A stretch of 64,000 nucleotides of DNA. It comes from Flammeovirgaceae bacterium (GTDB lineage: Bacteria > Bacteroidota > Bacteroidia > Cytophagales > MED-G16). A program made the position numbers and the translations under genes. The stretch is taken from the NCBI GenBank assembly GCA_038113315.1, contig JAYNOQ010000001.1, forward strand, positions 22,015-86,014. The letters run 5' to 3'. The notes under the pieces were generated by a model that saw only the letters and a program-made list of their open reading frames with translations, was not told the origin of the DNA and did not search any database. Shown here piece after piece: positions 4,217 through 33,685 of the stretch (its first letter is position 1; each line of letters begins with the position of its first letter).

Positions 4217-6231
4217 AAAAGAAACCAAATAAAAATATTATAAATAATAATAACTTCAATAATCAGATATGGATAGTATTTCTAGTATCTATTTTCATTT
4301 ATCTTTCTTTTGGGTTCTTTTCAACTAAACCAATCACTGTAGACTATAATCGTTTCCAAAAAATGATTAAGAGCCATGATATTTCAAAGATAGTTGTTAT
4401 AAAAAATCAAGAAATTGTAGAAATATCCCTTAAAGAAGAGGCTCTTCTCAATACTACGTATAAAGATGAATTAGAATCATCAAGTTTATTAAGTAATACT
4501 TATGGACCTCATTATAGGTTAGAAGTATCTTCAATTGAATCTTTTGAAAAAAGATATGACGATTTGATAAGTTCGCTTGGTAAAGAAAACACTAATGAGA
4601 TTGAGTATCTAACTGAAAGTCGAACTGATATATATTCTTTTTTACAAACTTGGGGTTTTACAATTTTAATATTAGTTGGTTTTTGGTTTTTATTAAGAAG
4701 GATGTCAACAGGCGGTGGCCCCGGTGGACAAATATTTAATATAAGTAAATCAAAAGCATCACTTTTTGATAAAGAAAGCAAAATAAAATTAACTTTTAAA
4801 GATGTGGCTGGTCTAGAAGAAGCAAAAGAAGAAGTTAAAGAAATTGTAGAATTTTTAAAGAATCCTAAAAAATTTACAAAATTAGGTGGTAAAATTCCAA
4901 AGGGTGCACTTCTAGTAGGATCACCGGGCACAGGTAAGACATTGCTAGCGAAAGCTGTAGCAGGTGAAGCTAACGTACCTTTCTATTCACTTTCTGGATC
5001 AGATTTTGTAGAAATGTTTGTTGGAGTTGGAGCAGCAAGAGTAAGAGATTTATTCAAAAAGGCAAAAGAAAAAGCTCCATGTATAGTATTTATTGATGAA
5101 ATTGATGCAATCGGAAGAAGTAGAGGAAGAGGACAAATGCCTGGATCAAATGATGAAAGAGAAAATACTTTAAATTCATTACTTGTTGAAATGGATGGTT
5201 TTTCTACAGATTCAGGTGTCATTATATTAGCAGCAACTAACAGACCAGATGTTCTTGATTCAGCGTTATTAAGACCTGGTAGATTTGATAGACAGATTTC
5301 TATTGATAAACCTGATCTAAAAGGAAGAGAAGAAATTTTCAAAGTACACATACGACCATTAAAGCTAAATGATGATGTGAATGTAAAAAATCTTGCAGCG
5401 CAAACACCAGGTTTTGCAGGAGCTGAAATAGCTAACGTATGTAATGAATCCGCTCTCATTGCTGCAAGAAAAAACAAAGATTCAATTGAAATGTCTGATT
5501 TTCAAGATGCTATTGATAGAGTAATTGGTGGATTAGAGAAAAAAAATAAAATTATATCTCCAGAAGAAAAGAAAATAGTTGCTTATCATGAAGCTGGTCA
5601 TGCTGTTGCTGGATGGTATTTAGAACATGCTGATCCCCTTGTAAAAGTGAGTATTGTACCTAGAGGTATTGCTGCACTTGGATACGCGCAGTATCTACCA
5701 AAGGAACAGTATTTATATCAAACTGATCAATTACTAGATGAAATGTGTATGGCTCTTGGTGGGAGAGCAGCAGAAGATATAACATTTGGAAAAATTTCCA
5801 CTGGTGCTTTAAGTGATTTAGAAAGAATTACTAAAATGGCATACAGTATAGTTTCTGTTTATGGCATGAACAAAAACATTGGTAATATATCTTTTTATGA
5901 TTCTAAACAATCAGACTACAACTTCACTAAACCATATTCTGATTCAACTGCAGAAAAAATTGATTCAGAAGTTAAAAGAATTGTTGATAGTGCATATGAT
6001 AGAACTAAGAAACTACTTCTTAGCAAAAGAGAACAACTTGAGAAAATTGCTAATAAACTTTTAGAGAAAGAAATTCTATTTCAAAACGACCTTGAAAAAC
6101 TCATTGGAAAAAGACCATTTAAATCAAATCTTGAATTAAGTCAAGAAGAGAATAGTATTCAAGAAACAAAAGAAGAAATCAAAAATAAAAATGAGTTAGA
6201 TGGAAAGAATTCAAATCAAACTAAAAAATAA
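4213..6231 (+). CDS. ftsH: ATP-dependent zinc metalloprotease FtsH
   Basis: 672 aa. Two N-terminal TM segments, AAA Walker A GSPGTGKT, Walker [10 protein letters not shown], zinc motif HEAGHAV. Confidence 0.97.
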
Positions 6232-6949
6232 TAAAAAAGCATATTTTGCAGGTGATTTCCATCTTGGCATTCCTAACGAGAAATCTTCAATGATAAGAGA
6301 GAAGAAGATTATTAAGTGGTTAGATTCAATAGAAAACCATACACAAGAACTTTTTTTAATGGGAGATATTTTTGATTTCTGGTTTGAATATAAATATGTA
6401 GTACCAAAGTATTATTTTAATTTTCTATCGAAAATATCAAATATGATTGATAATGGCATTAATGTACACTTTTTCAAGGGCAATCATGATATGTGGACTC
6501 TTGATTACTTCGAGAATATAGGTTTAAAAGTTTATGATAATCACCAAAGTTTTAAAATAGATAATTCAAATATAATGGTTGGTCATGGTGATGGTTTGGG
6601 TAAAGGAGATAGAGGATATAAAGTCATGAAATCTATATTTAAGAACAGAGCTACACAATTCATGTTTAGAATATTACACCCTGATATAGGTATAAAACTT
6701 GGCACCTATCTATCAAAGTCAAATAAAAATAGAGAAGACAATTCCGAAAAAAATAATAATAGAATTTATAATTTTTGTAAAGATTATAATGATAAGGAAT
6801 CTAATAAAGCATATATTTTTGGTCATTCGCACAAAGTATCTATTAAAAAAATATCGAATTCAAGTACATATTTTAATACTGGAGAATGGTTAAATGAATC
6901 AAGCTATCTCGAATTAGATTCAGATAATTTTAAACTTAAAAAGTTTTAA
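6200..6949 (+). CDS. lpxH: UDP-2,3-diacylglucosamine diphosphatase (LpxH family metallophosphoesterase)
   Basis: 249 aa. Motif series GDFHLG, GDIFDFW, GNHD, GHGD fits the LpxH/calcineurin-like family. I found no alternative in-frame start after the ftsH stop, so the 32-nt overlap with ftsH seems real. Confidence 0.8.
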
Positions 6950-8124
6950 ATCTCAAAGAAAAAACCAATTAAACCTGCTGCTATTATTAAGAATATTGGA
7001 TGAATTTTTGTATTATTTAAAACAACAAATGTCAAAATACATGCTATTATACTATAAAGGCTTATATCAGCTTGTTGCTTAAACATTATAACATAACTTG
7101 AATAACATATCAGACCAATAATGCCTATTTTAAAACCATCTATTATAAGTTTAATGGTACTATTTTTTTTAATAAAGTAGTATACTCTCGAAAAAAAAAT
7201 TATTACTACGGATGAGGGAAGAAAAATAGATAAGGTTGATAAAAAAGCCCCAAGTAAACCATTCATTTTATAGCCAATAAATGTTGCTGTTATTAGAATA
7301 GGACCAGGAGTAATTTGCCCCATAGCAATTGAATCTATAAACTCTCGCTGAGTGAGCCAACCTAATTGCTCCACTATAATTTTATCTAAATAAGGAATAA
7401 AAACATACCCACCTCCAAATAGGGTGAGAGAAATGTTTGCAAAAACTCTAGAAAGATCAAAGTTAATAGTACTTATTGGCGCAGTATTTAAAAACACCAA
7501 AAGAATTGTCATCACTAGGGAAGCTATTATAATTCCTTTTACCCTAATAAATGCCTTTTTTGGATTTGAAATTTTTTTAATCTTATCACCATTATAAAGG
7601 AGATTAAGACCACCACAAACTAAAAGGGGTAATATGATTGAAATATAACCTTTAATCGATGATGTTAGTATGAAACTAAGAATTGATAAAAGAATCGCTA
7701 AGTTCTTATCTTTAGAGTCCTTATAAAAACCATAAGCAACTGAAAAAATAACAGCAGCAACAACAGGCATCACACCATTAAAAAAAGATGAAAAACCTGG
7801 AATATTCTTAGAGTTAATATACAGGTGAGTAAAGATTACCATTATAAAGAAGGAGGGTAATAAAACAGCAACAAAAGACACTACGGCTCCCTTCCATCCT
7901 TTCAAAATGAAACCAATATAAGAAGCAACGTTTATAGCCATAGGGCCAGGTAGGAAACTGGCCATTGTTATTGCATCAATTATTTTCTTTTTCTTTATTA
8001 TTTTTTTTCTAATAGAAAACTCATACCTAATCATTGATATTAACATCATATAACCACCAAAGGATATTGTGCCAGTCTTCAAAAAAGTTAAAAAAAGGCT
8101 GAAATAAGATATATTTTTTTTCAT
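6946..8124 (-). CDS. chrA: Chromate transporter family protein (duplicated CHR domain)
   Basis: 392 aa polytopic membrane protein. FGGYMMLISMI and FGGGYVFIPYL motifs occur in the two halves, the typical ChrA repeat signature. Confidence 0.8.
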   Translation of the reverse strand: MKKNISYFSLFLTFLKTGTISFGGYMMLISMIRYEFSIRKKIIKKKKIIDAITMASFLPGPMAINVASYIGFILKGWKGAVVSFVAVLLPSFFIMVIFTHLYINSKNIPGFSSFFNGVMPVVAAVIFSVAYGFYKDSKDKNLAILLSILSFILTSSIKGYISIILPLLVCGGLNLLYNGDKIKKISNPKKAFIRVKGIIIASLVMTILLVFLNTAPISTINFDLSRVFANISLTLFGGGYVFIPYLDKIIVEQLGWLTQREFIDSIAMGQITPGPILITATFIGYKMNGLLGAFLSTLSIFLPSSVVIIFFSRVYYFIKKNSTIKLIIDGFKIGIIGLICYSSYVIMFKQQADISLYSIIACILTFVVLNNTKIHPIFLIIAAGLIGFFFEI

Positions 8125-8150
8125 AACTTACGGTAAAGTATAAGTAAATT

Positions 8151-8525
8151 ATGAAAAAGGTATTAATAATTTCAGTAATATTTATTATTTCATCTTGTAC
8201 CAGTGAAATTGATCTAAGAGGAGATTGGAAAGCAACTCATTTAGTTATTAATAATGAAGATTCAGTAGGAGTACCTTCTTTTCCTCTAACTTATTTCAAA
8301 TCAGATAGCTTAGTTATATATTTTGAGAGATTAATGAGGTACAGTATATCTGGTGATAGTATAATATTCATCAATGAAAGTAATCCTAGGGATACTGTAT
8401 TAAAATATAAAATAGAAATAATTAATGAAGATAATTTAATATTTTACTATTCTAGAAAAGTTACAGACTCAACAAATAATATAATAAATATTCCTTATCA
8501 TAGTTTCTGGGAAAGAAAAAAATAA
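8151..8525 (+). CDS. Small lipoprotein of unknown function
   Basis: 124 aa. Signal peptide ending in the lipobox ISSC. No family recognised by eye. Confidence 0.5.
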   Translation: MKKVLIISVIFIISSCTSEIDLRGDWKATHLVINNEDSVGVPSFPLTYFKSDSLVIYFERLMRYSISGDSIIFINESNPRDTVLKYKIEIINEDNLIFYYSRKVTDSTNNIINIPYHSFWERKK

Positions 8526-8536
8526 ATTCTTTTAAC

Positions 8537-8574
8537 AAAAAAAAAGGGTAATCATATGATTACCCCTTTTTTTC
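8537..8574. terminator. Bidirectional intrinsic terminator
   Basis: A perfect 20-nt palindrome GGGTAATCATATGATTACCC (8546..8565) is preceded by an A-run and followed by a T-run. It sits between the convergent genes ending at 8525 (+) and 8603 (-). Confidence 0.75.
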
Positions 8575-8602
8575 TTGTATTATTTTCTAATACATATTTA
8601 GA

Positions 8603-9553
8603 CTAATTAGTTAATGCTGGCCAAGTAGATCCGTCTGCATACCTCATCTCAGCTCTTCCAGCCTCACCGTAAGTATTGGCCCAATCGTAAGTAAAGATTT
8701 TACCATCTGAACTTACAGAAGCTGATCCAGGAAGCATTGACCATCCCTCAGCATAATTATCTGATCCACTAATACTCATTACATTACAAGCATCTGTGAA
8801 TGCAGGACCTTGAGCAGATGTTATTGAATAACCAATAAAAGCCCATGCCCCAGCAGTCATATCATTCTTTAATGTATAAACATTATCAGCAGATCCAACT
8901 TTTACAAGTTCGTCCTGGTGTCCAGTTACAGAGTATACCCACCATGATATATCAGAAAGACCTGCGTCTTCTGAGTCAACAATGACAGCACCCTCTAAAC
9001 TTGAAGGACAAACAATATAAACATTTAATCTAAATAGAGCAGCAAATGCATTAGATGACTGTAAGTTTGGTCCAGTATTATTGTAATCAAAAACACGACC
9101 ATCATTCATCGTGATTGTAAACCAATATCTGAAATAACTTCCACCATCAACGTCAGCCTGAGTAATACCCAAGGCAGACATAGCAGCATCAAATCCAAGA
9201 TTAATATCAGAACTAAGATATCCGTCTGCGTTTGTAACAAACTCAGAAGAAGAAATAGTTTTGAAATCTTTTCTGGCAACACTCTTTGCACCTCCACTAA
9301 TCATGTCAACATACTCAACATCAATATCGTACTGAGCAATGCCAGTACCATTATTAGCATCATAGTACTCTACATGTAAATCTATTGCTGAAGACCCAAT
9401 ATCGAAGTAGTTATACTCACCAGTTTGAGTCATCTTTCTAGCATATGCGCCATATTCCATATCATCGAATAATTCAACAGGTAAATCTGGATCACTACAT
9501 GATACTGCAAAAACAGCTAAAAACGCTATAAATGATTTTTTTAAATATTTCAT
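8603..9553 (-). CDS. Surface lipoprotein of unknown function encoded downstream of SusC/SusD
   Basis: 316 aa. Signal peptide plus lipobox (AVSC), followed by the acidic SDPDLP stretch expected of Bacteroidota surface-exported lipoproteins. It lies 19 nt downstream of the SusD-like gene. Composition is Gly/Ala/Asp/Ser-rich, unlike the flanking genes. Confidence 0.6.
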   Translation of the reverse strand: MKYLKKSFIAFLAVFAVSCSDPDLPVELFDDMEYGAYARKMTQTGEYNYFDIGSSAIDLHVEYYDANNGTGIAQYDIDVEYVDMISGGAKSVARKDFKTISSSEFVTNADGYLSSDINLGFDAAMSALGITQADVDGGSYFRYWFTITMNDGRVFDYNNTGPNLQSSNAFAALFRLNVYIVCPSSLEGAVIVDSEDAGLSDISWWVYSVTGHQDELVKVGSADNVYTLKNDMTAGAWAFIGYSITSAQGPAFTDACNVMSISGSDNYAEGWSMLPGSASVSSDGKIFTYDWANTYGEAGRAEMRYADGSTWPALTN

Positions 9554-9572
9554 AATTAATAAAATTTAAAAA

Positions 9573-11321
9573 TTAGTTTAAACCTGCACCTGCTCTATCC
9601 CAGAAAATTTTCTCTCCTAAATCTGTTCTAACAGGAGCATTCTTGTTCAAGTTAGAAAAATCTGAAGGATATGGGAAAAGCCTTGGAAAAGTACCAGCAT
9701 CAGGAGTCTTCATAGGACCCTGCATCTCAGTTGGATGACCAGTTCTTCTCATAGCATTATACAATTCGATACCATTAGAGAATGAAGCGAGTCTATGCTC
9801 TTTTACAATGATATTCATCTTTGCTTCATTATCTGCTGCAGCATCATACGCATTCAATACATAATTGACATAAGAATCAATTACTCTTGACTCAGGTACT
9901 GTACCAACTCCGTTTTCGTCAAAGTCACCAACTGGACCCCAACCTGCAGAGTAAGACATTACTGAAGCTATTGATTCTCTAATACCAGCTTCTAACATGT
10001 CTTTAGCATTTTCACTAGAAAGACCATCAAGAGCAGCTTCCGCTCTCATGAAGTAAACATTAGCAGCCATTAATAAAGGAGCATGACCGTCTCCGCCTCC
10101 ACCCATGGTTCCGAGTTGCTGAGTGTGAATAGTTGTAGCTGAACCAGCTTCAACAGCACCATCAGTCTCAGATGCAGCATCACCATCATCATATGCACCA
10201 GCTGCAGGATAAATACCACGAGATGTTCTCTTTCGACCATCTGGAGGAGTTCCGTCATTGTTTCCATGATCCCTACCCCAGTATCCTTTTGCTAAAGCTG
10301 CATCAACAGTAGTTAAAGAGCTAGCAGCACAGAAAGGCCAAGTTTTTGTCTCTCCGTATGCATTAGTATACTGGTTGTCATACCAGACTGGTCTAGTTTC
10401 AGGAACAACACAATCGATAGTAAATAAGTCTTCACCTACAATTTGCAAGTCCTGTCTCTTATAATAATACCTAAGTCTTGGATCAGGAAAAGGCTTTTCT
10501 TCCATTAACTCCCACATGAAGTAGTTAGATTGATATGGGCCAGCACCAGATTCATATGCACCAGCATACCACGGGTGTCTAGAATCAGGATTTTGTCTGT
10601 TACTTCCGTATTGAAAAACCCAATCATCAGCCTTACTATCTATAACACCTGCAGATAAAGCAGCCGATATCTTTCCAGCATTACCTTCATTTAGAGCAAG
10701 TCTAAACTTAAGTGTGTTAGCAAGGGTTATCCACTTAGCTTTATCACCACCATAAAAAATGTCCACAGCTGGACCACCAATAGCAGTTTTACCTAAATCT
10801 ACAATTGCCTCATCATATAATCCTTCGATTGCTGCGTACACAGTTTGTGCATCATCAACTTTAGGACTAAGGTTTTCTGTTCCTTGCCATGCCTCAGAAT
10901 AAGGAATTGCACCATGCTTGTCAACAAGCATTTGTAAAGCATATCCTTTTAAGATTTTACCAGCACCAACATGAATCCAAGATTCAGCAGCAGCACCAGC
11001 CTCAACCATAGCATCAATATCAGGAATTAAACCAGAATAAGCAGAATTCCATGAACCATTAAAACTAGAAGATAAGTAAGCATTGTCATACGTCTCACCC
11101 CATGTCATACATGCAACCCTAGCTACTTGAAGCAATGGAGTTTGATTTCCATACCACCAACCCCCAAAACTAGTTTGAACAGAGTTCCAGTATAAATCAA
11201 GACCTGCGTTTTCAGCAGTTACAGCATTCGGGTTGTTTAACTGATCAAGATCAGTAATCTCACATGAATACCCAACAAACATGAAAGCTATTATTAAGTA
11301 TAATTTATTTAATTTTTTCAT
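9573..11321 (-). CDS. SusD/RagB-family outer-membrane nutrient-binding lipoprotein
   Basis: 582 aa. Lipoprotein signal (GYSC). Length, TPR-like helical N-terminal pattern and position immediately after a SusC-type TonB-dependent transporter all fit. Confidence 0.88.
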   Translation of the reverse strand: MKKLNKLYLIIAFMFVGYSCEITDLDQLNNPNAVTAENAGLDLYWNSVQTSFGGWWYGNQTPLLQVARVACMTWGETYDNAYLSSSFNGSWNSAYSGLIPDIDAMVEAGAAAESWIHVGAGKILKGYALQMLVDKHGAIPYSEAWQGTENLSPKVDDAQTVYAAIEGLYDEAIVDLGKTAIGGPAVDIFYGGDKAKWITLANTLKFRLALNEGNAGKISAALSAGVIDSKADDWVFQYGSNRQNPDSRHPWYAGAYESGAGPYQSNYFMWELMEEKPFPDPRLRYYYKRQDLQIVGEDLFTIDCVVPETRPVWYDNQYTNAYGETKTWPFCAASSLTTVDAALAKGYWGRDHGNNDGTPPDGRKRTSRGIYPAAGAYDDGDAASETDGAVEAGSATTIHTQQLGTMGGGGDGHAPLLMAANVYFMRAEAALDGLSSENAKDMLEAGIRESIASVMSYSAGWGPVGDFDENGVGTVPESRVIDSYVNYVLNAYDAAADNEAKMNIIVKEHRLASFSNGIELYNAMRRTGHPTEMQGPMKTPDAGTFPRLFPYPSDFSNLNKNAPVRTDLGEKIFWDRAGAGLN

Positions 11322-11341
11322 AATATTTAATATTTAAAAAA

Positions 11342-14300
11342 TTAGAATGTTAAACTTAGAGTTGCACCATACTTCTTAGCAGTAGGACCAGTCATCTCAT
11401 CCCAACCTCTAGCATTAGATCCAGTACCATAACTTATAACCTCAGGGTCAAAGTTTGCACCTCTCGGAAAATTATATGCTAAATGCCATAGATTTTGAGC
11501 AGAAACAGTTAAACTCGCGCTTCCAAATGGAGTACCATTAAGGAATGATTTAGGAGCAACTAAAGAAAGAGAAACTTCTCTTAGTCTCATCACTGAAGCA
11601 TCATACACAGAGTTTTCATCATAGAATACTCCAGTATTTGGCCAATAATGAGCGTTAGCTGTAGTTTGTTTAGTATTAACAGCACCATCATTAGTTAATC
11701 CAGTAGTTACTACAGGAACGAATCTATCGAAACCAGTTTCCTCAAGAATACCTCTACCAAGTAAAGTTGAACTAGTAGTAGAGAATACATCTCCACCTAC
11801 AGAAGCATCAAACTGAACTCTAGCAGTTAACCACTTATAAGTTAAGGTATTAGTTACACCATAAACAAAATCTGGATTAGGATCACCAATTACTGCATAA
11901 CCAAGTTGTTGGTATCCACCATTTGAATTAACAATTGGAGTGTAATTAGTTCTATCGTCCCAATGAACTTGCTTATGATCAGTACCATCAAGGCTACCAT
12001 AATCTCTCTTGATAATATCACCTTCCATTATACCAAAAGGTAATCCAGGAATTGCAATATTTCCTCTACCAACATAACCTGCAACATATATTTTTTCAAC
12101 ACCATCAGCAATAGAAAGCACCTCACTTCTTAATAATGAGAATTGTCCCGATACTTCCCATGTAAAGTCTCTAGACTGTACAGGAACTAAAGAAACAATT
12201 GCTTCTAAACCTTTGTTATTAATAGACGCTGAGTTTACAGTTGAAGATCTATAACCTGTAGTTGCATCAAGATCTAAATCAATGATAAGATCTTCAGAAT
12301 CCTTAGTAAATAAAGATAAATCTATACCAACTCTATTCTGGAAAAACTTACCCTCAATTCCAAGTTCAATTTCTTTGTGAATCTCAGGTGTTAATCCTGG
12401 ATTAGCAAAGAATGTACTTACATTATTCGAATTAAGAAGTGTACCACCAGAAGTTTGGAAAACTTTAGTTCTAGTTACCAACGATCCTCTAGTTGAGTAT
12501 GGCGAAGGGTAACCTGCAGAAGTTCCAAATCCAAATCTAACTTTTAAAAAGTTTAAATTCTGATTAGATATACCTAATGCATCAAATGGTAATACCGATA
12601 AAGAAACTGAAGGATATAAAAATGATCTGTTTTCAGGCTCCAAAGTAGAAGTCCAATCATTCCTAGCAGATGCAGTTAAAAATCCCCAATCTTTATATCC
12701 TAAAGAAAGGTTTGCATATGCACCATAAGTATTCTCTCTAAGTACGTAAGAGTTTGCAGTAGTTACTGTAAAGTTACTATGGTCAAAGAAGTCGAAAATG
12801 AACATATCAGAACTAAATATCTGAGCTAATTCATAATTTCTTGATTGTAAGTTTGCACCTACTAAGAAATCAAAATCTAAATCTTCAGATAGTTCTACTG
12901 ATCCATTAAGGTTAACTACTTGATCATAATTAATATTATTTCTATATGACGTTTGATAGGCTCCTAAAACAGCATAACCCATAACTCCATTCTTATTAAT
13001 CATGTAGTTATTCAGCATATTCGTTCTATCAAGACCTATTCTGTATGTCAGATTTAAGAAATCAGCAACTTCATAACTGAGGGTAACATTACCAATAAAT
13101 CTGTTAACATCGTCTTTGTCCCTAGAATTGTGTAAAGTCCATAATGGATGTTGCATTCCGTTATCTCCCCTGTAGTATACACTACCACGAGTATCTGGTC
13201 TTTCATATTCTAATCCGAATAAATTCCAACTTCTAGGAGTATATAAAACATTACCAAATAAAGAAACATTACTTGCATTTGAGTTTCTACTCGGAGCAAC
13301 TGGTGGCTTATTAGCTTGAGATTCAATATAATTGAATGAAGCATTAATTTTTAAACCATTTGCAAGCTGAGTATTAGCACCTAAAGCAAAATTATGTTTT
13401 CTATAATCGTTGAAAGGAATATATCCATTGTCTTTAGTCCAACCATAATTTGCTTTTATTGATGAAGAACCAACTTGAGCATTAATACCAATAGAGGTAT
13501 TTTGTTGAGAACCATCGACAAAGAAGTTCTGTAAATTGTCATAAGCTTGGTACTTCCATCTTGCACCTACGTACTGAGGAAAAACAGCATTCCAAGAGCT
13601 TCTGTCATAAGGATGTTTTATCGTACCATCAGTTAATCCGTTTCTATTAGGATCATCAAAAGGAGCTCCCCAGTTACTAAATGCAGCTGATGCTCTATTT
13701 TGCCATCCATTACCATACTGATCTTGATCGTCTGGTACACTAGCTACCTGATTTACAAAATATGATTGGCTATATGAAACTTCTAAACCTTTATTAGATG
13801 TGCTTCCAATTTGACCAGTTTTGGTCGTAATAAGGATCACACCATTTCTACCAGCCTCACCGTATAGTACGGTAGCAGCAAGTCCTTTTAGCACACTTAT
13901 CTCTGCTACGTTGTTAGGATCAAGATCTAAAAATCTACTAGAAGCAGTTGCACCACCACTAGTAAAGCCTCTATCCGAATAAGTTGAACCGTCAATCGGC
14001 ACACCATCTAAAACGAATAAAGGTTGATTAGAACCTGAAATTGAGGTATATCCTCTAATAATAATATTAGTACCAGTTCCAGAAACACCACTTTGTGAAG
14101 TGATATCAACACCAGGAACTTTACCTCTTAACAACCTAGCTATGTCTGCTTCGGGTCTAGCTTCAAGCTGTTCACCACCAACAGAAGTTACTGCATAACC
14201 AAGTGCAGCTTTTTCTTTGGTGATACCCAATGCAGTTACAACAACCTCTTGAAGTTCTTCAACATCAGAGCTCATAACTACATCCACCACTGATCTAGCA

Positions 14301-14551
14301 CCAATTGCAACTTCTTGCGATACTAAACCAATAAATGAAAATACTAAGGTACCTCCATCACTAGGAACATCTAGCGAGTATGAACCATTGACATCTGTAG
14401 TAGTACCAATAGTCGTACCTTGAAGGATCACGTTAACACCAGGAAGACCACTACCGTCTTCGTCAGATGAAACAGATCCAGAAATAGTTCTGTCTTGAGC
14501 CCAAACATTTGAAGCCAAAAACAAGAAACTAACTAGTATAAATCTAAACAT
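11342..14551 (-). CDS. SusC/RagA-family TonB-dependent transporter
   Basis: 1069 aa. Signal peptide, N-terminal carboxypeptidase-regulatory-like domain (ISGSVSSDEDGSGLPGVNVILQGT), a plug region (VTALGITKEKAALGYAV), a long beta-barrel and a C-terminal aromatic residue (LTF). Confidence 0.93.
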   Translation of the reverse strand: MFRFILVSFLFLASNVWAQDRTISGSVSSDEDGSGLPGVNVILQGTTIGTTTDVNGSYSLDVPSDGGTLVFSFIGLVSQEVAIGARSVVDVVMSSDVEELQEVVVTALGITKEKAALGYAVTSVGGEQLEARPEADIARLLRGKVPGVDITSQSGVSGTGTNIIIRGYTSISGSNQPLFVLDGVPIDGSTYSDRGFTSGGATASSRFLDLDPNNVAEISVLKGLAATVLYGEAGRNGVILITTKTGQIGSTSNKGLEVSYSQSYFVNQVASVPDDQDQYGNGWQNRASAAFSNWGAPFDDPNRNGLTDGTIKHPYDRSSWNAVFPQYVGARWKYQAYDNLQNFFVDGSQQNTSIGINAQVGSSSIKANYGWTKDNGYIPFNDYRKHNFALGANTQLANGLKINASFNYIESQANKPPVAPSRNSNASNVSLFGNVLYTPRSWNLFGLEYERPDTRGSVYYRGDNGMQHPLWTLHNSRDKDDVNRFIGNVTLSYEVADFLNLTYRIGLDRTNMLNNYMINKNGVMGYAVLGAYQTSYRNNINYDQVVNLNGSVELSEDLDFDFLVGANLQSRNYELAQIFSSDMFIFDFFDHSNFTVTTANSYVLRENTYGAYANLSLGYKDWGFLTASARNDWTSTLEPENRSFLYPSVSLSVLPFDALGISNQNLNFLKVRFGFGTSAGYPSPYSTRGSLVTRTKVFQTSGGTLLNSNNVSTFFANPGLTPEIHKEIELGIEGKFFQNRVGIDLSLFTKDSEDLIIDLDLDATTGYRSSTVNSASINNKGLEAIVSLVPVQSRDFTWEVSGQFSLLRSEVLSIADGVEKIYVAGYVGRGNIAIPGLPFGIMEGDIIKRDYGSLDGTDHKQVHWDDRTNYTPIVNSNGGYQQLGYAVIGDPNPDFVYGVTNTLTYKWLTARVQFDASVGGDVFSTTSSTLLGRGILEETGFDRFVPVVTTGLTNDGAVNTKQTTANAHYWPNTGVFYDENSVYDASVMRLREVSLSLVAPKSFLNGTPFGSASLTVSAQNLWHLAYNFPRGANFDPEVISYGTGSNARGWDEMTGPTAKKYGATLSLTF

Positions 14552-14850
14552 AGTTTAATTGATATTTAATTAATAGTTGTTTAACAATAATTAACTGTGA
14601 TTTTACCAATTTTCTCAAAAAATGAGAGAAAAAAGAATACACCACAGACAAGTCTCCCTACCCAAAATCCTCATTTAGAGCAAGGAAACGAATATTTTAA
14701 GGTTTTTTAACAAAAAACCCATTGGCTATTTTAATAATTACAGATGAGAAATCAATGATATTTCTAATTTTTTTTCAATAATTTATTTACGATTTATTCA
14801 CATTAAATTAACATGTGAAAAAGTTTTTCCAGTGTTTTTTTTAAAGAAGA

Positions 14851-16626
14851 CTAGTTGTTGATCTTGAATTCTATTCTCCTATTCTCAGGGCCATCATAAT
14901 TAGGTCTAATTGGTAATGAATTTCCAAAGCCTTTATAATATATATTTTTTATAGTAGGATCAATTGATAGTATAAACTTAACAACAGCCTCTGCTCTTGC
15001 TTCTGATAAACTATAATTATATTCATCAGAACCAACATTGTCTGCATGACCAGAAATCTGAATTTCTTTAAAATTATTATTACCTAACCACTGAGATATT
15101 ATTGATAAGTATTTTTTTGAATCACTACTTAACTCATAACTATCAAAATCAAAATATATATTTTTCAATATAATATTTTCATCCAACCTACTCATAAAGA
15201 TATCAATAGTATCACTCGACAAATCTTCAATGACACTAGGGAAATAAGCCTTTGACTCAGCTATTATTGAAGAGTTAGAATAAAAATCCTCATTATATTT
15301 TGATTGGTTACTAAATCTTTTTCTTTCTCCATCATTTATAATAAACAAATCACTTATTATTTCTTCACCTGTCTCTTTATCATATGTTCTGACAAGTTTA
15401 TTAACTTGTATAGGCTCATATTTTTTGGAAATTTGTCCATAGATTATTTGTGACTTCTTATTTGACATGATATCCTCAACGGTCAACAAAAGATTATCAC
15501 CCCATATAAATATTGATGTCTCATCAAGATATGAATTTACGGAAGAGCCAAGATTAAATATTAAGTTATTATCTAATAAATAAATATCATAACCACCATA
15601 GGAATTATCTCTATTTGAGGAAAAATAAAAAATAGCATCGTTAACAACTGGAGATACCTCCTCATGTTTTGTGTTAACCTCCTTAAAATTCAATGCTTTA
15701 GAAAATGATCCATCTTCTTTTATTACTGAATAATAAATATCTCTTCCACCCACTCCACCTGGCCTATTTGATACAAAGTATAGCGTACCATCATACATGA
15801 AAGGTTGTGAATCCCAAAAAGCTGAATTTACGTTATCATCAAATTTTCTAGGCTTAGACCATAAATTACCTTTCATTTGAGAGTAGTATATATCGCAAGA
15901 GTTATTCTTAAAGTCCATCTCACAAGAGGTAAACACCATAAACTTTCCATCATCAGAAAATGATGGAGTACCCTCATTGTTCTCAGAATTAAGACTAATG
16001 TAGGGTTTAAAATCAGTAAAATTATTATTAGATAAAGACGCTGTTACAATATTTTCATCATCAAAAAGGTTTCCACCTTCTCTTACTGTAAAGAATAACT
16101 TTTTTACATTTTGATCAAAGTGGGGAGAATATTGATAGTACCATCTATCTATAGAATCATTTTTAATGTAAGATATTAATTGATTATTTGTGTTATTGAT
16201 GTAGTAATTAATATTACTTCTATATTTTGATAATGAAATAAACTTCAATGTATCATCAATAGAATCAAAATGTTTTTTTGACTCTGATATGTTACCACTT
16301 AAAAAATAAAATTCACCCAAATAATAACTTACATCATCCTTATTTTGCTGGCATAATTTGTCATTATAAACTAAAAGCCAGTTCTTATAATCTGAGAACA
16401 TATTTATTTTTTTATACGATAACCCTAATTTATAAATAGCAGGACAAAAATCAGGGTCAGACTTTAAAGATTTTAAAAATAAATCAATTGCTGAATCAAA
16501 ATCTCCTATTGAATATAATGCATTACCCTCTTTATAAAATTTAGTTGCTTTCTTATAATTCTGGGAATAAGATTGACTTGAAAGAAAATTAAAGAAGCAT
16601 AAAAAAATTAATAATCTAGTCAACAC
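14851..16626 (-). CDS. OmpA-family protein with N-terminal TPR and TolB-like (WD40-like) repeats
   Basis: 591 aa. Signal peptide, TPR-like YKEGNALYSIGDFDSAIDLF, PD40-like repeats (SPHF, PSFSDDGKFMVFTS, RPGGVGGRDIYYS). C-terminal OmpA/MotB peptidoglycan-binding motif ISGHADNVGSDEYNYSLSEARA. Confidence 0.8.
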   Translation of the reverse strand: MLTRLLIFLCFFNFLSSQSYSQNYKKATKFYKEGNALYSIGDFDSAIDLFLKSLKSDPDFCPAIYKLGLSYKKINMFSDYKNWLLVYNDKLCQQNKDDVSYYLGEFYFLSGNISESKKHFDSIDDTLKFISLSKYRSNINYYINNTNNQLISYIKNDSIDRWYYQYSPHFDQNVKKLFFTVREGGNLFDDENIVTASLSNNNFTDFKPYISLNSENNEGTPSFSDDGKFMVFTSCEMDFKNNSCDIYYSQMKGNLWSKPRKFDDNVNSAFWDSQPFMYDGTLYFVSNRPGGVGGRDIYYSVIKEDGSFSKALNFKEVNTKHEEVSPVVNDAIFYFSSNRDNSYGGYDIYLLDNNLIFNLGSSVNSYLDETSIFIWGDNLLLTVEDIMSNKKSQIIYGQISKKYEPIQVNKLVRTYDKETGEEIISDLFIINDGERKRFSNQSKYNEDFYSNSSIIAESKAYFPSVIEDLSSDTIDIFMSRLDENIILKNIYFDFDSYELSSDSKKYLSIISQWLGNNNFKEIQISGHADNVGSDEYNYSLSEARAEAVVKFILSIDPTIKNIYYKGFGNSLPIRPNYDGPENRRIEFKINN

Positions 16627-17233
16627 CTAAATATTTATGGGTTTGTAGTGATATTTTCCACTTTGGATTACTCTTAATATATTCTAGAATACTAGAATTA
16701 ATTTTTTCAGATTTTGACCATTCCGGCTGTAAAATAAGATCAGGATTATTCTTAATTTTTTTTAAATTTTCTTCAGCCCACAAAAAGTCCGAATTATTAT
16801 AAATTATTATTTTTAATTCGTCAGATAACTCAAAGAATTCGTCTAACGGTTCCTTAAATTTTTTAGGTGAAAAACAAATCCAGTCAAAGTTACCTGACAA
16901 AGGATGAGTTCCTGATGTCTCTAAATGTATCTTTTTATCATATTCCTTTAGAATAGTTGTTAGCTCAGTTAAGTCATGCATTAGAGGCTCACCACCAGTT
17001 ATAACAATTATTTCGGCAGGTGATTTTAGTACATCATTTACTATTTCTTTGACAGTTTTAAATTGGTTTTCATCAATGTCCCACGAATCCTTCACATCAC
17101 ACCAGTGACAATTTACGTCACAACCAGCTAATCTAATGAAATAAGATGGTTTACCAGTATGAGTTCCCTCACCTTGGATACTATAAAAAGTCTCCATTAC
17201 TGGAATTTTAGAATCAGATCTTGAACTTATCAC
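16616..17233 (-). CDS. queE: 7-carboxy-7-deazaguanine synthase (radical SAM)
   Basis: 205 aa. FYSIQGEG, radical-SAM cluster CDVNCHWCD and ITGGEP are typical of QueE. Confidence 0.85.
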   Translation of the reverse strand: MISSRSDSKIPVMETFYSIQGEGTHTGKPSYFIRLAGCDVNCHWCDVKDSWDIDENQFKTVKEIVNDVLKSPAEIIVITGGEPLMHDLTELTTILKEYDKKIHLETSGTHPLSGNFDWICFSPKKFKEPLDEFFELSDELKIIIYNNSDFLWAEENLKKIKNNPDLILQPEWSKSEKINSSILEYIKSNPKWKISLQTHKYLGVD

Positions 17234-18089
17234 AATATACTTTTAGTGTATTTTGAAGTAAAGAGACAATAGTCATCGGACCAACGCCACCAGGAACAGG
17301 TGTAATAAGACTAGCTTTTTTAGAAACATTTTCAAAGTCAACATCGCCAACAATTTTATAGCCGGATTTTTTAGAAGAGTCTTCTACTCTAGAAATACCA
17401 ACATCAATTATTGCAACTCCTTCCTTGACCATATCTTGAGTAACTAAATTAGGTTTACCAACAGCAGATATTATAAGATCAGCATCAATTGTTAGAGATT
17501 TTAAATTTTTGGTTTTGCTGTTACAAACAATTACTGTAGCATCTTCTCTCTCAACTAGCATTTGAGCAATAGCACCGCCAACATTTCTGCTTGCACCTAG
17601 CACAACACACTTTTTTGAATCTATATCTATTCCATACCTTTCAATTAATGTCATAACTCCAAGGCCAGTAGCTGGCATTAATTTTTTCTTTTTAGAGGTA
17701 ATACTTCCAATATTATCGTTCGTAAACCCATCAATATCTTTGGACGGATCAATAGATTCAATTACTTTCTGAACACTAATTTGATCAGGCAAGGGTAATT
17801 GAACAATAAAACCATCAAGATTTACATCAGAATTAAATTTCTTTATGATATTTAATAATTCCTGCTGATTAATGTTATCGTTTAAATTAATTAACTCCGC
17901 ATCGATCCCTACACTCTCACAAGCCTTAAGTTTTGCATTCACATAAATTCTACTGGGACCATGAGCTCCGACCAGAATAATTTTTATAGATGGGGCCCTA
18001 TTACCTTTAGAAATAGAAAATGAAATCTTTTTTGTTATTTCATCTTTTATTTCACTTGCTACTTTTATTCCGTCAATTAAATTATTCAT
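17214..18089 (-). CDS. folD: Bifunctional methylenetetrahydrofolate dehydrogenase/methenyl-THF cyclohydrolase
   Basis: 291 aa. [34 protein letters not shown] and [10 protein letters not shown] signatures. Confidence 0.95.
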
Positions 18090-20746: not shown

Positions 20747-22306
20747 CTAAATAATTTTATTTAGCTTATTACTTTTTGAATCACTTTCGATTTGAATAAT
20801 CTCTTTAATTGATTTATCCCTTCTTATTAATGTTTTGACATATTTCCAAGTTGCCTGAACTTTATCTCTATTGAAGTCTAAAATTAGGTAACCATGATCC
20901 CTTGTATTTGTATATTTAAGATGCGGGTTGATAGACTCATCTGTTATGTAATTTTCATGGTCAATTAAATTTTGTAGAGGAACATTAGAAAACCTTTCAT
21001 CAGAATTTCCTGAATTTATACTTGGGGTACCAAATTCCAATGCATACGGTTTTATAGGGAAGTCAGATTCTAATGGAATATGATTTACCTCAAAAGCCCA
21101 AGACTGATGTGTGTCACCCGTAATAAAAACAACATCATTTATATCATTACTAACTATATGATCAGCAATTCTTTGTCTCTCAACAGGATAGCCATCCCAC
21201 GAATCTAAATTTATATTAAAGTCTGGTCTTCCATAATTTAAGTATGAAAATATAACTTGATTACCTATTATTTTCCACTGGGTTGAATTATCGGATAAAT
21301 TATTTAAAAACCAATTAAGTTGAACCTCGCCAAGCATAGTCCTGTCAGACTCAAATAAACTTGAATCTTGTAAACTGCTCGCTTGTTTTGTTCTACCCTC
21401 CAGCCTTTCTTCTAGAATTATGAGATCTGCTAAACTACCAAAAGTAAACTTCCTGTATGGCATTTGATTTTCTCTTATTGGCTGCCACTCGTAATAAGCT
21501 TGAAGTGCAAATGAAATTCTTTCATTAAAATTTCCTTCTTTTTCCTCTTGATGATTTTCAGCTCCATCTTTATATGTATTATTAGCAGTTTCGTGATCAT
21601 CCCATATTAAAATAAAAGGATGACTACTATGAGCACTTATTAAATCAGGGTCTAATTTGTATTGAGAGTGCCTTGTCCTGTAGTCTGTCAAAGAAACAAT
21701 TTCTTTATCAGGTAAATGTAATCTTTTGAAAATCCCATTGCTATAATCACGAGACTTATACTCATAAATATAATCTCCTAAATGTATTACTGCATCTAAA
21801 TCCTCATCAGCAAGTGATCCATAAGCATTAAAAAAGCCTCTTTGATAGTCACTACAGCTAATTGCTGCTATCTTTAGTGAACTTGTAGAATCACTAATTG
21901 TTTTTGTTCTGCCAACCATTGATTCTTTTCCTAAAGCTTCAAACTTATAAAAATATGTTTTGCCAGGACTTAATTTGTCCACATCAACTTTTACAGTATA
22001 ATCTCTTTCATTATTTGTAATAAACACACCTTCATTTATAATTTCATTAAAATCCTTTGATTCAGATATTTTCCATTTTACAGAAATTTCACTTAACGTT
22101 TTTTCAGGTGTAACTCTAGTCCAGATTATAACTTTATTTTCTAAAGGATCACCTGATGCTACTCCATGATAGAAAGGGGCCATAGAATCAACTTTAAGAC
22201 CATCAACGTCTTCAATAAATGATAATTCTTTATTTGTACAATTAATTAAAATAAAAATTGCACAAAAAAGATAAACTAAAACTGAAAGAGACTTTTTCAT
22301 TTTCAT
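20747..22306 (-). CDS. phoD: PhoD-family alkaline phosphatase/phosphodiesterase, predicted lipoprotein
   Basis: 519 aa. PhoD-like metallophosphatase pattern (FYHGVASGDP, HLGDYIYE, WDDHE, GDTHQSW). The N-terminus has a lipobox (LINC) and no twin-arginine motif. Confidence 0.85.
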   Translation of the reverse strand: MKMKKSLSVLVYLFCAIFILINCTNKELSFIEDVDGLKVDSMAPFYHGVASGDPLENKVIIWTRVTPEKTLSEISVKWKISESKDFNEIINEGVFITNNERDYTVKVDVDKLSPGKTYFYKFEALGKESMVGRTKTISDSTSSLKIAAISCSDYQRGFFNAYGSLADEDLDAVIHLGDYIYEYKSRDYSNGIFKRLHLPDKEIVSLTDYRTRHSQYKLDPDLISAHSSHPFILIWDDHETANNTYKDGAENHQEEKEGNFNERISFALQAYYEWQPIRENQMPYRKFTFGSLADLIILEERLEGRTKQASSLQDSSLFESDRTMLGEVQLNWFLNNLSDNSTQWKIIGNQVIFSYLNYGRPDFNINLDSWDGYPVERQRIADHIVSNDINDVVFITGDTHQSWAFEVNHIPLESDFPIKPYALEFGTPSINSGNSDERFSNVPLQNLIDHENYITDESINPHLKYTNTRDHGYLILDFNRDKVQATWKYVKTLIRRDKSIKEIIQIESDSKSNKLNKII

Positions 22307-22356
22307 AATATGTAAAATTAGATTATTAATGTATTACACAATGAATATAAGTGAAT

Positions 22357-22364
22357 TATATTTG
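22357..22364 (+). promoter_or_regulatory. Candidate -7 promoter box for the 22373-25728 gene string
   Basis: TATATTTG matches TAnnTTTG exactly, 8 nt upstream of the ATG at 22373. No clean TTG at the expected -33 position. Confidence 0.3.
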
Positions 22365-22372
22365 AGTCCAAA

Positions 22373-23386
22373 ATGAAAATATCAGCATCAATATACTCAA
22401 ACAACGACAGAAGTTTAGAAATCCTTATTCAAGATCTTGATAAATACAATATTGATATGTTTCATGTTGACTTTAATGACAAAAAAATAGAGTTCAATAA
22501 GATCGAGGAAGATATTAAAGAAATTAGAAAGATTAGCAATAAGCCTATTGACTTACATATTATTTCAGATAACCCAAATAAATATGAGAACTTCATTATT
22601 GAAAATGAGATCGAATTTGTAACATACCAATTAGAAAATATTAAGGATGAATTAGAGTTTCCTAACTCAGTTAAGACTCAATTTGGTATTGCAATAACAT
22701 CAGATACAGAGGTAAGTAAATTTGAAAATTACAAAAACAATTGTGATTTTATTCTTCTTATGACTACTACTCCAGGAGAAAGTGGAGGTAAATTCAATAA
22801 AATTAATTTTAAAAAAATAAGAGATTTCAAGAATACATATCCATCAAAAAAGGTTCATATAGATGGAGGGGTAAATGATGAAATTGCATTTATACTTAGA
22901 ATTCATGGCGTTAAATCTGTTGTGTCTGGATCATATCTTGTTAACGGTGATATTGCAAAGTCTTTATTGGAACTAAAATCATCAGTATCATCATCTCAAA
23001 TTAAAGTAAGTGAGTTTATGCTTAATAGAAATGAGTCACCAATTGTAAATGAAAATAGCAAAATAGATGAAATTTTATCTACTATCGAAAAATATGATCT
23101 AGGTTTTACTTGTGTAGAAAATAGAAAAAAAGAATTAATTGGAATTATTAGTATGGCAGATATACGAAAAAGTTTAATTAATAATATAGAAGCTTTTAGC
23201 ACTTTTAAAGCTGAGGACATTATAAATAAGAATCCAATAATTATAAAGGAGGGTGATAGTATTAATAATATGTTGAAGACTATTCAAAACCATAATTTTC
23301 TTATATCTTTTATTCCCGTTACTAATGAAGTAATGAAGTTAGTAGGGCTAGTTACATTTTTTAATCTAATAAAAAGCGAATCATGA
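22373..23386 (+). CDS. Ribulose-phosphate 3-epimerase-like TIM-barrel domain fused to a C-terminal CBS pair
   Basis: 337 aa. The N-terminal ~205 aa follow the RPE pattern (KISASIYS, FHVDFND, IDLHIIS, LLMTTTPGESGGKF, VHIDGGVN, VVSGSYL). The C-terminal ~125 aa show two CBS-like repeats (SEFMLNRNESPIV...GIISMADIRKSL and AEDIINKNPIII...GLVTFFNLIKS). Confidence 0.65.
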   Translation: MKISASIYSNNDRSLEILIQDLDKYNIDMFHVDFNDKKIEFNKIEEDIKEIRKISNKPIDLHIISDNPNKYENFIIENEIEFVTYQLENIKDELEFPNSVKTQFGIAITSDTEVSKFENYKNNCDFILLMTTTPGESGGKFNKINFKKIRDFKNTYPSKKVHIDGGVNDEIAFILRIHGVKSVVSGSYLVNGDIAKSLLELKSSVSSSQIKVSEFMLNRNESPIVNENSKIDEILSTIEKYDLGFTCVENRKKELIGIISMADIRKSLINNIEAFSTFKAEDIINKNPIIIKEGDSINNMLKTIQNHNFLISFIPVTNEVMKLVGLVTFFNLIKSES

Positions 23387-24381: not shown

Positions 24382-24854
24382 GAATACCTAAAATAAAAAT
24401 GCTTATTCTAGATGTAGATGGTACCATGACAGATAATGGCATATATATTGATGAAAATGGCATTGAATCTAAAAGATATAACGCAAAAGACGGGGTAGGT
24501 ATTTATGAGCTTATTAAAAAAGGTGTGAAAATTGGAATTATAAGTCATTCAGAGAGAGGTGATGGAATTAAATCAAGAGCATCTTATCTAGGTATTAAAA
24601 GCTGTTATGTAGGAAATGCACCAAAAGATAAAATCTTAATTGATTGGATAAATGAAGATAAAATTACATTAGAAGAAGTTGCGTTTATTGGAGATGATAT
24701 AAATGATATGAGTATAATTGATATTGTTGGTTTTAGTGCTTGCCCTAGCGATGCGTCTCAACCTGTTAAAGAAAAAGTATCATTAGTACTAAATACTAAG
24801 GGAGGATATGGTTGTGTAAGGGAATTTAGTGATTTATATTTGAGCCAAATTTAA
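24378..24854 (+). CDS. KdsC/YrbI-family HAD phosphatase (3-deoxy-ulosonate phosphate phosphatase family)
   Basis: 158 aa. HAD motif [15 protein letters not shown], motif IV GDDINDM, C-terminal GGYGCVRE. The size and pattern fit the YrbI subfamily. Confidence 0.8.
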
Positions 24855-33535: not shown

Positions 33536-33568
33536 TTTGGTAAATGTCTTAATTAAAATATATTTTTG
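33536..33568 (+). promoter_or_regulatory. Candidate Bacteroidota-type promoter for tRNA-Ser
   Basis: TTTG (33536..33539), a 21-nt spacer, then TATTTTTG (33561..33568, exact TAnnTTTG). The box ends 16 nt before the tRNA 5' end. Confidence 0.42.
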
Positions 33569-33584
33569 CTGCCAAGATTATTAC

Positions 33585-33669
33585 AGAGGAGTGGCAGAGT
33601 GGTCGAATGCGGCGGTCTTGAAAACCGTTGTACCGCAAGGTACCGGGGGTTCGAATCCCTCCTCCTCTG
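33585..33669 (+). tRNA. tRNA-Ser (anticodon TGA), long variable arm
   Basis: AGAGGAG/TG/GCA-GAGTGGTCGAA-TGC/G/GCGGT-CTTGAAA-ACCGT, extra arm TACC-GCAA-GGTA, GGGGG-TTCGAAT-CCCTC, CTCCTCT/G. It lies inside the 5' part of ORF-track entry 33566..34015. The first base pair appears to be A1-T72. Confidence 0.9.
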
Positions 33670-33685
33670 CTTACTTACCAACCCA

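Follow-up and report, generated by a model that had tools for sequence, protein, structure and literature searches.

The locus considered here comprises three adjacent minus-strand genes, encoding a SusC-type outer-membrane transporter, a SusD-like lipoprotein and a further surface lipoprotein, at positions 8603-14551 of a 64,000-nucleotide (nt) stretch of contig JAYNOQ010000001.1 from a Flammeovirgaceae bacterium (hereafter the window). The three genes are richer in GC than their surroundings, and the whole of this excess was found to lie in the first and second codon positions, i.e., in the make-up of the proteins, while the silent sites follow the AT bias of the rest of the window. We consider it likely that the pattern reflects strong purifying and translational selection on a native and probably very abundant SusCD-lipoprotein complex, an abundance that we infer from codon and amino-acid usage. 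The original prediction for this locus had left two explanations side by side, namely transfer from a higher-GC donor and expression-linked selection. The second of these fits the sequence evidence, whereas the first does not fit the GC content at four-fold sites (0.07-0.09) or the synteny of the locus in relatives, both of which are described below.

The window has an overall GC content of 30.1%, and the stretch 8603-14551 reaches 0.370, as compared with 0.296±0.011 (maximum 0.325) in non-overlapping windows of 5949 nt taken outside the block. That the block is GC-richer than its surroundings, as originally predicted, is therefore correct. By gene, the GC content is 0.372 for the lipoprotein, 0.400 for SusD and 0.357 for SusC, against 0.292±0.033 for the other open reading frames (ORFs), which corresponds to z = 2.0-3.3. 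This baseline, here and for the codon-position values given below, still includes a probably spurious ORF of 149 amino acids (aa) at 33566-34015 (GC 0.384), which overlaps the tRNA gene 33585-33669; later analyses were made without it. The size of the rise had been overstated, however: most sampled 60-nt rows were said to be at about 45% GC, but the median row of the block is at 36.7% (10-90% range 30-46.7%) and only 13% of rows are at 45% or above. The gap to atpD (0.354) and dnaK (0.337) is small, and the block lies only slightly above atpD.

Both of the sharp borders that had been claimed for the block are present. One is a palindromic hairpin at 8538-8573, assigned to neither strand and flanked by a run of A and a run of T (A8-stem-T7, AAAAAAAAGGGTAATCAT/ATGATTACCCCTTTTTTT), which was matched by the terminator scan and looks like a bidirectional intrinsic terminator between convergent genes. 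The other border is a gap of 299 nt at 14552-14850. The claim that the flanks lack an integrase, a transposase, a tRNA junction and direct repeats also withstood checking. No integrase or transposase was seen among the neighbouring genes of the block, the tRNAs that Rfam detects in the window all lie elsewhere, and no convincing att-like direct repeats flank the block, the sole "repeat" (D6) being a 74% match of A/T-rich hairpin sequences.

When the GC content is split by codon position, the nature of the rise becomes clear. GC at first positions (GC1) is 0.46-0.51 in the three genes versus a baseline of 0.39, and GC at second positions (GC2) is 0.43-0.45 versus 0.307±0.048 in the other ORFs (0.429 in susC, 0.453 in the SusD gene and 0.435 in the lipoprotein gene). 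GC at third positions (GC3), on the other hand, is 0.185-0.235 and thus near the baseline of 0.18±0.03, so that codon positions 1 and 2 account for the whole excess. The three genes have a GC content of 0.07-0.09 at four-fold degenerate sites (0.087 in susC and 0.068 in the SusD gene), as compared with about 0.13 in typical genes of the window, 0.081 in atpD and 0.077 in dnaK. If the block had been imported recently from a GC-richer source, its silent sites above all would be expected to be GC-rich; since the opposite was found, recent import is rejected.

The silent sites of the three genes are also biased in a particular direction. Among four-fold codons, those ending in T are preferred (GGT 0.65 vs 0.39, ACT 0.68 vs 0.44, GCT 0.59 vs 0.46), and among codons ending in a pyrimidine (NNY) those ending in C are preferred (TTC 0.37 vs 0.17, AAC 0.30 vs 0.16). 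Overall, the frequency of T at four-fold sites is 0.56-0.65 vs 0.44±0.06 and that of C in NNY codons is 0.27-0.33 vs 0.17±0.05; both values are among the highest of the window in all three genes, and the SusD gene tops both. We compared these shifts to those of a proxy set of presumed highly expressed genes (atpD, dnaK, sucD, lpdA, clpB, frr, ftsH, dnaJ and lepA), contrasted with the remaining genes of the window. The codon shifts of the three genes track those of the proxy set (r = 0.68, p = 4e-9) and are 2-3 times larger.

At the protein level, the three products were predicted to be rich in Gly, Ala, Asp, Thr and Val and poor in Lys, Asn and Ile, and this description is borne out: the summed fraction of the former five residues is 0.38-0.41 vs 0.26±0.05, and that of Lys, Asn and Ile (K+N+I) is 0.14-0.15 vs 0.28±0.05 (0.154 in SusC, 0.144 in SusD and 0.139 in the lipoprotein). 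Lys accounts for 3-4% of residues vs 9.4%, Ile for about 5% vs 10.4%, and Glu is lowered as well, with Ala, Gly, Thr, Val and Asp raised. For SusC, the make-up is that of its subfamily. Across 134 full-length representatives, K+N+I is 0.184±0.021 and the fraction of Gly, Ala, Arg and Pro is 0.244±0.022, and the window SusC has 0.154 and 0.242. Because it matches its subfamily in this way, the gene has gained no GC but has stayed out of the AT drift of its genome. Members of the subfamily range up to a K+N+I of 0.25, and one Tenacibaculum protein is at 0.237, which indicates that the fold tolerates drift. A generic effect on exported or outer-membrane proteins was also considered and rejected, since other envelope proteins of the window and its relatives are AT-shifted. 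An ordinary AT-shifted make-up was found in an OMP_b-brl_2 barrel (51925-52653), in the OmpA-family neighbor of the block, in PhoD, in an M14 peptidase and in a GSDH lipoprotein, and likewise in an FG-GAP protein with a type IX secretion system (T9SS) tail that is encoded by some relatives.

The window SusC is 100% identical to a protein from a metagenome-assembled genome (MAG) labelled "Flammeovirgaceae bacterium", and hundreds of relatives at 82-94% identity occur in marine metagenomes, some of them on contigs of 0.85-1.1 Mb. The species-representative genomes that carry this SusC are MAGs and single-amplified genomes (SAGs) of uncultured "Marinoscillum sp.", Marinoscillaceae and Cytophagales, with a local GC content of 29-33%. 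A "Cytophagia clade Marinoscillum" has been described as recurring at 1-3% after North Sea blooms (PMC4829426), and no paper was found on the locus in this lineage. In the SusC-anchored loci the gene order is conserved as PhoD, acyltransferase, LepA, FolD, QueE, OmpA, SusC, SusD, lipoprotein, in some cases a small lipoprotein, and ChrA. To escape the ascertainment bias of a SusC search, the flanking OmpA-family gene was used as a query as well, and SusC follows OmpA in 4/4 flank-anchored loci with enough downstream sequence. In nine relatives, GC2 is 0.426-0.429 for SusC and mostly 0.44-0.465 for SusD and the lipoprotein, the four-fold GC3 is 0.06-0.15, and K+N+I is mostly 0.13-0.18. One relative, L001, has its lipoprotein gene split into two ORFs, with a GC2 of 0.376 and 0.478 and, in the second fragment, a K+N+I of 0.10. 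Presence or absence in closely related genomes had been named in the original prediction as a check on transfer, and each relative examined was found to carry the block in syntenic position and with unaltered composition. The best SusC proteins from beyond the clade are 40-53% identical, the named ones belonging to Saprospiraceae, Tenacibaculum and Cyclobacteriaceae. With no outside SusC above 53% identity, no candidate donor lineage emerged.

Between relatives that are further apart, synonymous sites have reached saturation, with a codon identity of about 50-60% as compared with 0.51-0.66 expected from codon frequencies. The lipoprotein has diverged as well, and composition and codon bias have nevertheless stayed constant, which argues for an equilibrium of mutation and selection rather than a relic.

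Although no outside donor was detected, it would not be correct to say that nothing horizontal takes place at this locus, as alleles are exchanged within the clade, an exchange that does not explain the composition. The relative L026 is 96-99% identical to the window at the nt level over 14000-17900, i.e., over the flank plus ~550 nt at the start of susC, whereas identity falls to 83-89% over the rest of susC, 70-88% over susD and about 70% over the lipoprotein gene, with the break, from 97-99% to 83-89%, at about 13700-14000. The corresponding protein identities are 96% for OmpA and 51% for the lipoprotein. The SAG L018 shows a different picture, with 36% identity to the window for OmpA, 87% for LepA, 82% for the lipoprotein and 94% for ChrA. 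Two SAGs, L012 and L018, share 99% of LepA, 91% of SusC and 66% of the lipoprotein, and L015 has a lipoprotein that resembles its counterpart in L026 (75%) more than the lipoproteins of its own clade (63-66%). Synonymous divergence (dS) between L008 and L011 is 1.08 for LepA and 1.38 for OmpA but 0.27 for SusC, 0.18 for SusD and 0.15-0.26 for the lipoprotein; between L003 and L013 it is 0.09 for LepA and 0.26-0.47 for the lipoprotein. These contrasts confirm exchange in both directions. Judging from such alignments, the SusC barrel, SusD and the lipoprotein behave as an allelic cassette that is exchanged by homologous recombination within the clade. The tract edges (at about 6000, 10500-11000 and 13700-14000) differ from the compositional edges at 8574 and 14552, and all alleles are alike in composition, so recombination does not explain the GC island. 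Outside the block, too, the window is a mosaic with respect to single relatives: 21001-24500 is 94-98% identical at the nt level to the SAG L005 and the rest 66-87%, and 6001-10500 is closest to the SAG L018 (83-88%). This mosaic would result from intra-clade recombination or, less likely, from a strain-chimeric MAG assembly.

Several other explanations were weighed against this evidence. A recent horizontal acquisition, in which a Bacteroidota donor of higher GC would have supplied the trio with a composition not yet ameliorated, would account for the raised overall GC and for the sharp borders at the terminator and the long intergenic gap. It is nevertheless extremely improbable in our view, as the four-fold GC3 lies below the genome norm precisely where donor GC should appear first, neither an integrase nor a tRNA nor att-like repeats accompany the block, the locus has an unchanged position in all the relatives that were examined, no SusC from outside the clade surpasses 53% identity, and the lipoprotein family is almost confined to the clade (97 of 99 homologs are at least 43% identical). 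If the acquisition were instead placed before the radiation of the clade, the silent sites could have ameliorated and the amino-acid composition would be a "fossil" of the donor. The scatter of the nearest outside relatives over Bacteroidota families, at 40-47% identity, which makes the ancestry untraceable, is compatible with such an event, and the high conservation of SusC makes slow non-synonymous amelioration conceivable. Against it stand the lipoprotein, which has been turned over (26-46% identity in its C-terminal domain) and still has a K+N+I of 0.143±0.012 in 87 homologs, the composition of SusC, which is that of the whole subfamily and of no particular donor, and the bias towards T at four-fold sites and C in NNY codons, which has been kept despite saturated synonymous sites. 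We regard an ancient acquisition as distinctly unlikely.

A pure protein-class effect, in which SusC barrels, SusD lids and beta-sandwich lipoproteins need this composition and expression is irrelevant, deserves more attention, as the composition of SusC equals the subfamily mean, and FtsH, LepA and DnaK have drifted although they are conserved, so that conservation is insufficient. Such an effect is still rather unlikely to be the whole explanation: the drift reached by some members of the subfamily indicates that the fold tolerates it, another outer-membrane barrel and several exported proteins of the window are AT-shifted, and the extreme bias of these genes in their synonymous codons would go unaccounted for. 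GC-biased gene conversion at a recombination hotspot might be invoked to lift the local GC, the locus demonstrably recombining within the clade. Silent sites should show this process most, yet their four-fold GC3 is the lowest in the neighborhood, and the tract edges do not fall on the compositional edges, which makes the idea very improbable. As for an artefact of assembly or binning, by which a foreign piece was joined into the MAG contig, the window is indeed a mosaic with respect to individual relatives, and assemblers may switch strain at conserved stretches, the 5' end of susC being one of them. The same order and composition, however, recur on many independent contigs, including four single-cell genomes and the contigs of 0.85-1.1 Mb, and the flanking synteny is unbroken on both sides, which leaves an artefact with almost no chance of being the cause.

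Selection on a native complex could operate at this locus in the following manner. The three genes would form one native outer-membrane uptake machine, combining a SusC barrel of the BT2264 type with a SusD-like lid and an accessory two-domain surface lipoprotein, and inherited in a fixed chromosomal slot through a streamlined marine Cytophagales clade of ~30% GC that is labelled "Marinoscillum". AT-biased mutation pressure would drive most proteins of the genome towards Lys, Asn and Ile, while these three would be kept rich in Gly, Ala, Thr, Asp and Val and poor in Lys, Ile and Glu, which for SusC is the ordinary composition of its subfamily. The intrinsic composition of the family would thereby set the target of selection. 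Synonymous sites would follow, and even exceed, the bias of the genome, with T-ending four-fold codons and C-ending NNY codons preferred in the housekeeping direction but to a larger extent. Swapping of the cassette within the clade would be superimposed on this, with the conserved first ~200 codons of susC as one crossover zone.

We would like to note that a number of observations weigh against this explanation or limit its reach. FtsH, LepA and DnaK have a K+N+I of 0.23-0.25, having drifted though equally conserved or presumably well expressed; conservation alone is thus not predictive, and a component of protein class must contribute. The family-wide comparison of composition concerns SusC only. 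The proxy set was used since the window holds no ribosomal-protein genes. Among codons ending in a purine (NNR), the three genes favor the G-ending ones (AAG 0.38 vs 0.20, GAG 0.39 vs 0.24, CAG 0.34 vs 0.22), an enrichment that is absent from atpD, dnaK and the other proxy genes, and the effective number of codons, at 36-38, is unremarkable. The Akashi-Gojobori biosynthetic cost of the three proteins is 22.9-23.4 as compared with 24.4±1.5 (z of about -0.7 to -1), and side-chain nitrogen is low only in the lipoprotein (0.206 vs 0.329±0.054), SusC and SusD being near average. Two economies were considered as drivers and rejected on these values: minimization of metabolic cost as the main driver, because the cost is only 0.7-1 standard deviations under the mean, and minimization of nitrogen cost, because low nitrogen is limited to the lipoprotein.

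The first gene of the block, susC (11342..14551, minus strand), encodes a predicted TonB-dependent outer-membrane transporter of the SusC/RagA family with 1069 aa, whose plug and barrel are preceded by a signal peptide and a CarbopepD_reg-like N-terminal extension. The assignment is per TIGR04056, which is matched at 520.1 bits against a cutoff of 368.25 over profile positions 1-981 of 981, and per Pfam, which places CarbopepD_reg_2 at residues 23-105 (E = 5e-17) and Plug at residues 117-238 (E = 7e-18). SusC is 81-94% identical to its relatives in the clade and is as conserved there (81-91%) as FtsH (89-93%) and LepA (85-95%). Its first 200 codons (13952..14551, minus strand) form a segment that, in clade alignments, is unusually conserved at the DNA level and constitutes the left edge of the exchanged cassette. 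Here DNA identity is 91-99% in the main clade and 86% with respect to L003, a more distant relative, with 90-100% identity of the protein; synonymous-codon identity is 79-89% vs 52-57% expected at saturation; and dS, at 0.03-0.36, is the lowest of any segment every time. No conserved overlapping ORF is evident in these codons. The RNA of 13950-14300 folds at z = -3.5.

Upstream of susC, the leader region (14552..14850, minus strand) contains conserved blocks and three hairpins according to alignments and folds, with a fold z-score of -4.4. The hairpins are at 14701-14720, at 14652-14689 and, as a long variable one, at 14595-14647, and a conserved block precedes the ATG at 14564-14590. The long hairpin, an imperfect one of ~55 nt on the minus strand, lies between the conserved blocks 14652-14689 and 14564-14590 and was found at the same position in 19/20 relatives in which the anchors were found, the lone exception, L012, being probably an anchor artefact. 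Its arms differ in sequence between lineages, and the predicted free energies range from -13 to -26 kcal/mol, with z-scores from -2 to -7.6. These structures across relatives come from single-sequence folds; RNAalifold on the MAFFT alignment of the leader yielded no consensus structure, the alignment being unreliable there. No riboswitch or other known RNA was detected by Rfam in the 299-nt gap, and a scan for sigma-70 promoters, which does not cover Bacteroidota promoters, gave 31 matches vs 30.1 expected and hence nothing above chance. From its predicted fold, the hairpin at 14595-14647 may be a 5' mRNA-stabilizing or regulatory stem-loop, and together with the conservation of the 5' end of susC it may serve in recombination anchoring, mRNA stabilization or regulation.

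The second gene begins 20 nt past the susC stop codon on the same strand and encodes the SusD-like lipoprotein, the lid of the SusCD pair, with 582 aa (9573..11321, minus strand). Pfam assigns it to SusD-like_2 (PF12771, E = 6e-42) and SusD-like (E = 6e-30), at 144.4 bits vs a gathering threshold of 27, and its N-terminus, MKKLNKLYLIIAFMFVGYSC (...FMFVGYSC), carries a lipobox cysteine. Its identity within the clade is 71-91%; in the comparison that included FtsH and LepA it is 71-85%, intermediate between the values of SusC and the third gene product.

That third product is a surface lipoprotein of 316 aa (8603..9553, minus strand), restricted to the clade, with a lipobox (...AVFAVSC) and two all-beta domains in an AlphaFold2 model (mean predicted local distance difference test 75.7). 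It probably serves the SusCD complex as an accessory subunit. Neither Pfam nor NCBIfam gave a match for it, and the sole hint from the PDB is a weak fold match to 5fq8_G, an accessory lipoprotein of the Bacteroides thetaiotaomicron BT2261-64 complex (probability 0.92, E = 0.013). Of its 99 homologs, 97 are at least 43% identical and two are at 31-33%, and the labelled ones all come from this marine clade bar one: P0188, a homolog of 53% identity filed under "Candidatus Marinamargulisbacteria bacterium SCGC AG-414-C22", which probably reflects a contaminated single-cell assembly and not a genuine occurrence in a second phylum. The lipoprotein evolves fast, with 48-81% identity in the clade, and its C-terminal domain (residues 176-316, 8606..9028, minus strand) is hypervariable, as seen in both its identity and the incongruence of its alleles: the mean pairwise identity is 26-46% for this domain and 62-76% for the N-terminal one. 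At the scale of domains the ratio of non-synonymous to synonymous divergence (dN/dS) is 0.15-0.38, at which positive selection is not demonstrated. Throughout this divergence, K+N+I is constant over the 87 homologs. In L001, a contig of ~1.1 Mb, the two ORFs into which the lipoprotein gene is split (14994-15964) have 148 and 157 aa, whereas the sister contig L002 has an intact gene of 322 aa; the split is either a frameshift or pseudogene or else a long-read assembly error. Finally, the start regions of the lipoprotein gene (9532-9572) and the SusD gene (11300-11340) share 80% identity over 41 nt, both consisting of an A/T-rich spacer and an MKxLxK signal-peptide start, which suggests similar initiation contexts within the operon.

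Some relatives carry extra genes between the lipoprotein and ChrA, namely at 16044-21424 in L003/L004, 14490-19879 in L011 and 15978-21367 in L008. The first encodes a protein of about 1355 aa with FG-GAP, UnbV_ASPIC, VCPO_2nd and Por_Secre_tail domains (split into two ORFs in L008), and the second an arylsulfotransferase of about 438 aa. Both are AT-shifted as usual, and both are missing from the window and from L001, L005, L012 and L018.

More generally, a local rise of GC in an AT-rich genome is no evidence of foreign DNA unless the silent sites share the rise, and splitting GC by codon position, with particular attention to four-fold sites, decides the question in one step. The trio probably constitutes the principal machinery for nutrient uptake in a widespread clade of uncultured, streamlined marine Bacteroidota. 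Its exposed parts, chiefly the C-terminal domain of the lipoprotein, circulate as alleles open to exchange, in the manner of the P. gingivalis rag locus, which is relevant to substrate specificity and to possible recognition by phages or grazers. We raise, tentatively, the possibility that the SusCD-lipoprotein machine is both the dominant surface complex of its clade, an abundant one with streamlined genomes of ~1 Mb, and a replacement cassette at the population level, with alleles under frequency-dependent selection by, e.g., phages or grazers. Were this so, the conserved 5' end of susC and a leader hairpin conserved in structure and variable in sequence would flank variable alleles of barrel, lid and lipoprotein; phages or grazers would recognize the exposed C-terminal domain of the lipoprotein; and a GC island at the protein level would be the fingerprint of dominant, selection-shielded surface machines in AT-rich streamlined genomes.

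Comparison with known systems places each of these features. The nearest solved SusC is BT2264 of B. thetaiotaomicron BT2261-2264 (PDB 5fq6, 5fq7, 5fq8), with E = 1e-102 over residues 78-1068; the next solved SusC is at E = 7e-47, and RagA of Porphyromonas gingivalis is distant at E = 1e-37. BT2263 is among the matches of the window SusD, to which it is related only distantly (E = 5e-13). The BT2261-64 complex also has small accessory beta-rich lipoproteins, two in number, whereas the window has one of 316 aa, and no sequence similarity was detected between them. That complex is without carbohydrate-active enzyme (CAZyme) partners and contains an oligopeptide ligand in the crystal structure (PMC7782687); in the window, no CAZyme gene adjoins the trio. 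By analogy, the trio would be a SusCD importer of the pedal-bin type to which the surface lipoprotein is an accessory, and its substrate may be a peptide or a glycan. The hosts differ, that of BT2261-64 being a gut Bacteroides and that of the window a streamlined marine Cytophagales bacterium of ~30% GC.

The ragAB locus of P. gingivalis is likewise a SusC/SusD-type pair, with discrete alleles exchanged horizontally between strains and species and a ragA gene that is highly conserved in its N-terminal part. In earlier work it had been interpreted as a horizontally transferred "pathogenicity island" (PMC11817032 and references therein). Like ragAB, the window locus has allele classes that are incongruent with their flanks and a conserved 5' segment of susC. 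Unlike ragAB, its most variable part is the C-terminal domain of the lipoprotein encoded by the third gene, the number of its allele classes exceeds four (99 clusters at 90% identity), and its deviation in composition has its explanation in the proteins. Metatranscriptomes of the ocean show that expressed genes are richer in Ala and Gly, poorer in Lys, Asn and Ile, and better conserved (PMC3129676), and the same effect is attributed to Buchnera and Prochlorococcus by Palacios & Wernegreen 2002 and Banerjee & Ghosh 2006, as cited in PMC3129676. The shift in the window has the same direction as in the expressed genes of the ocean metatranscriptomes; in contrast to the ocean and Buchnera pattern, it is concentrated in one three-gene operon and exceeds that of atpD, dnaK, ftsH and lepA. 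With classical genomic islands the block shares a local deviation of GC and sharp borders, but it differs from them in having native silent sites, in lacking mobility genes, a tRNA junction and repeats, and in being syntenic throughout its relatives. The locus is thus made up of kinds already known, i.e., a BT2264-type SusCD system, expressed genes that resist AT drift, and a rag-like allelic cassette.

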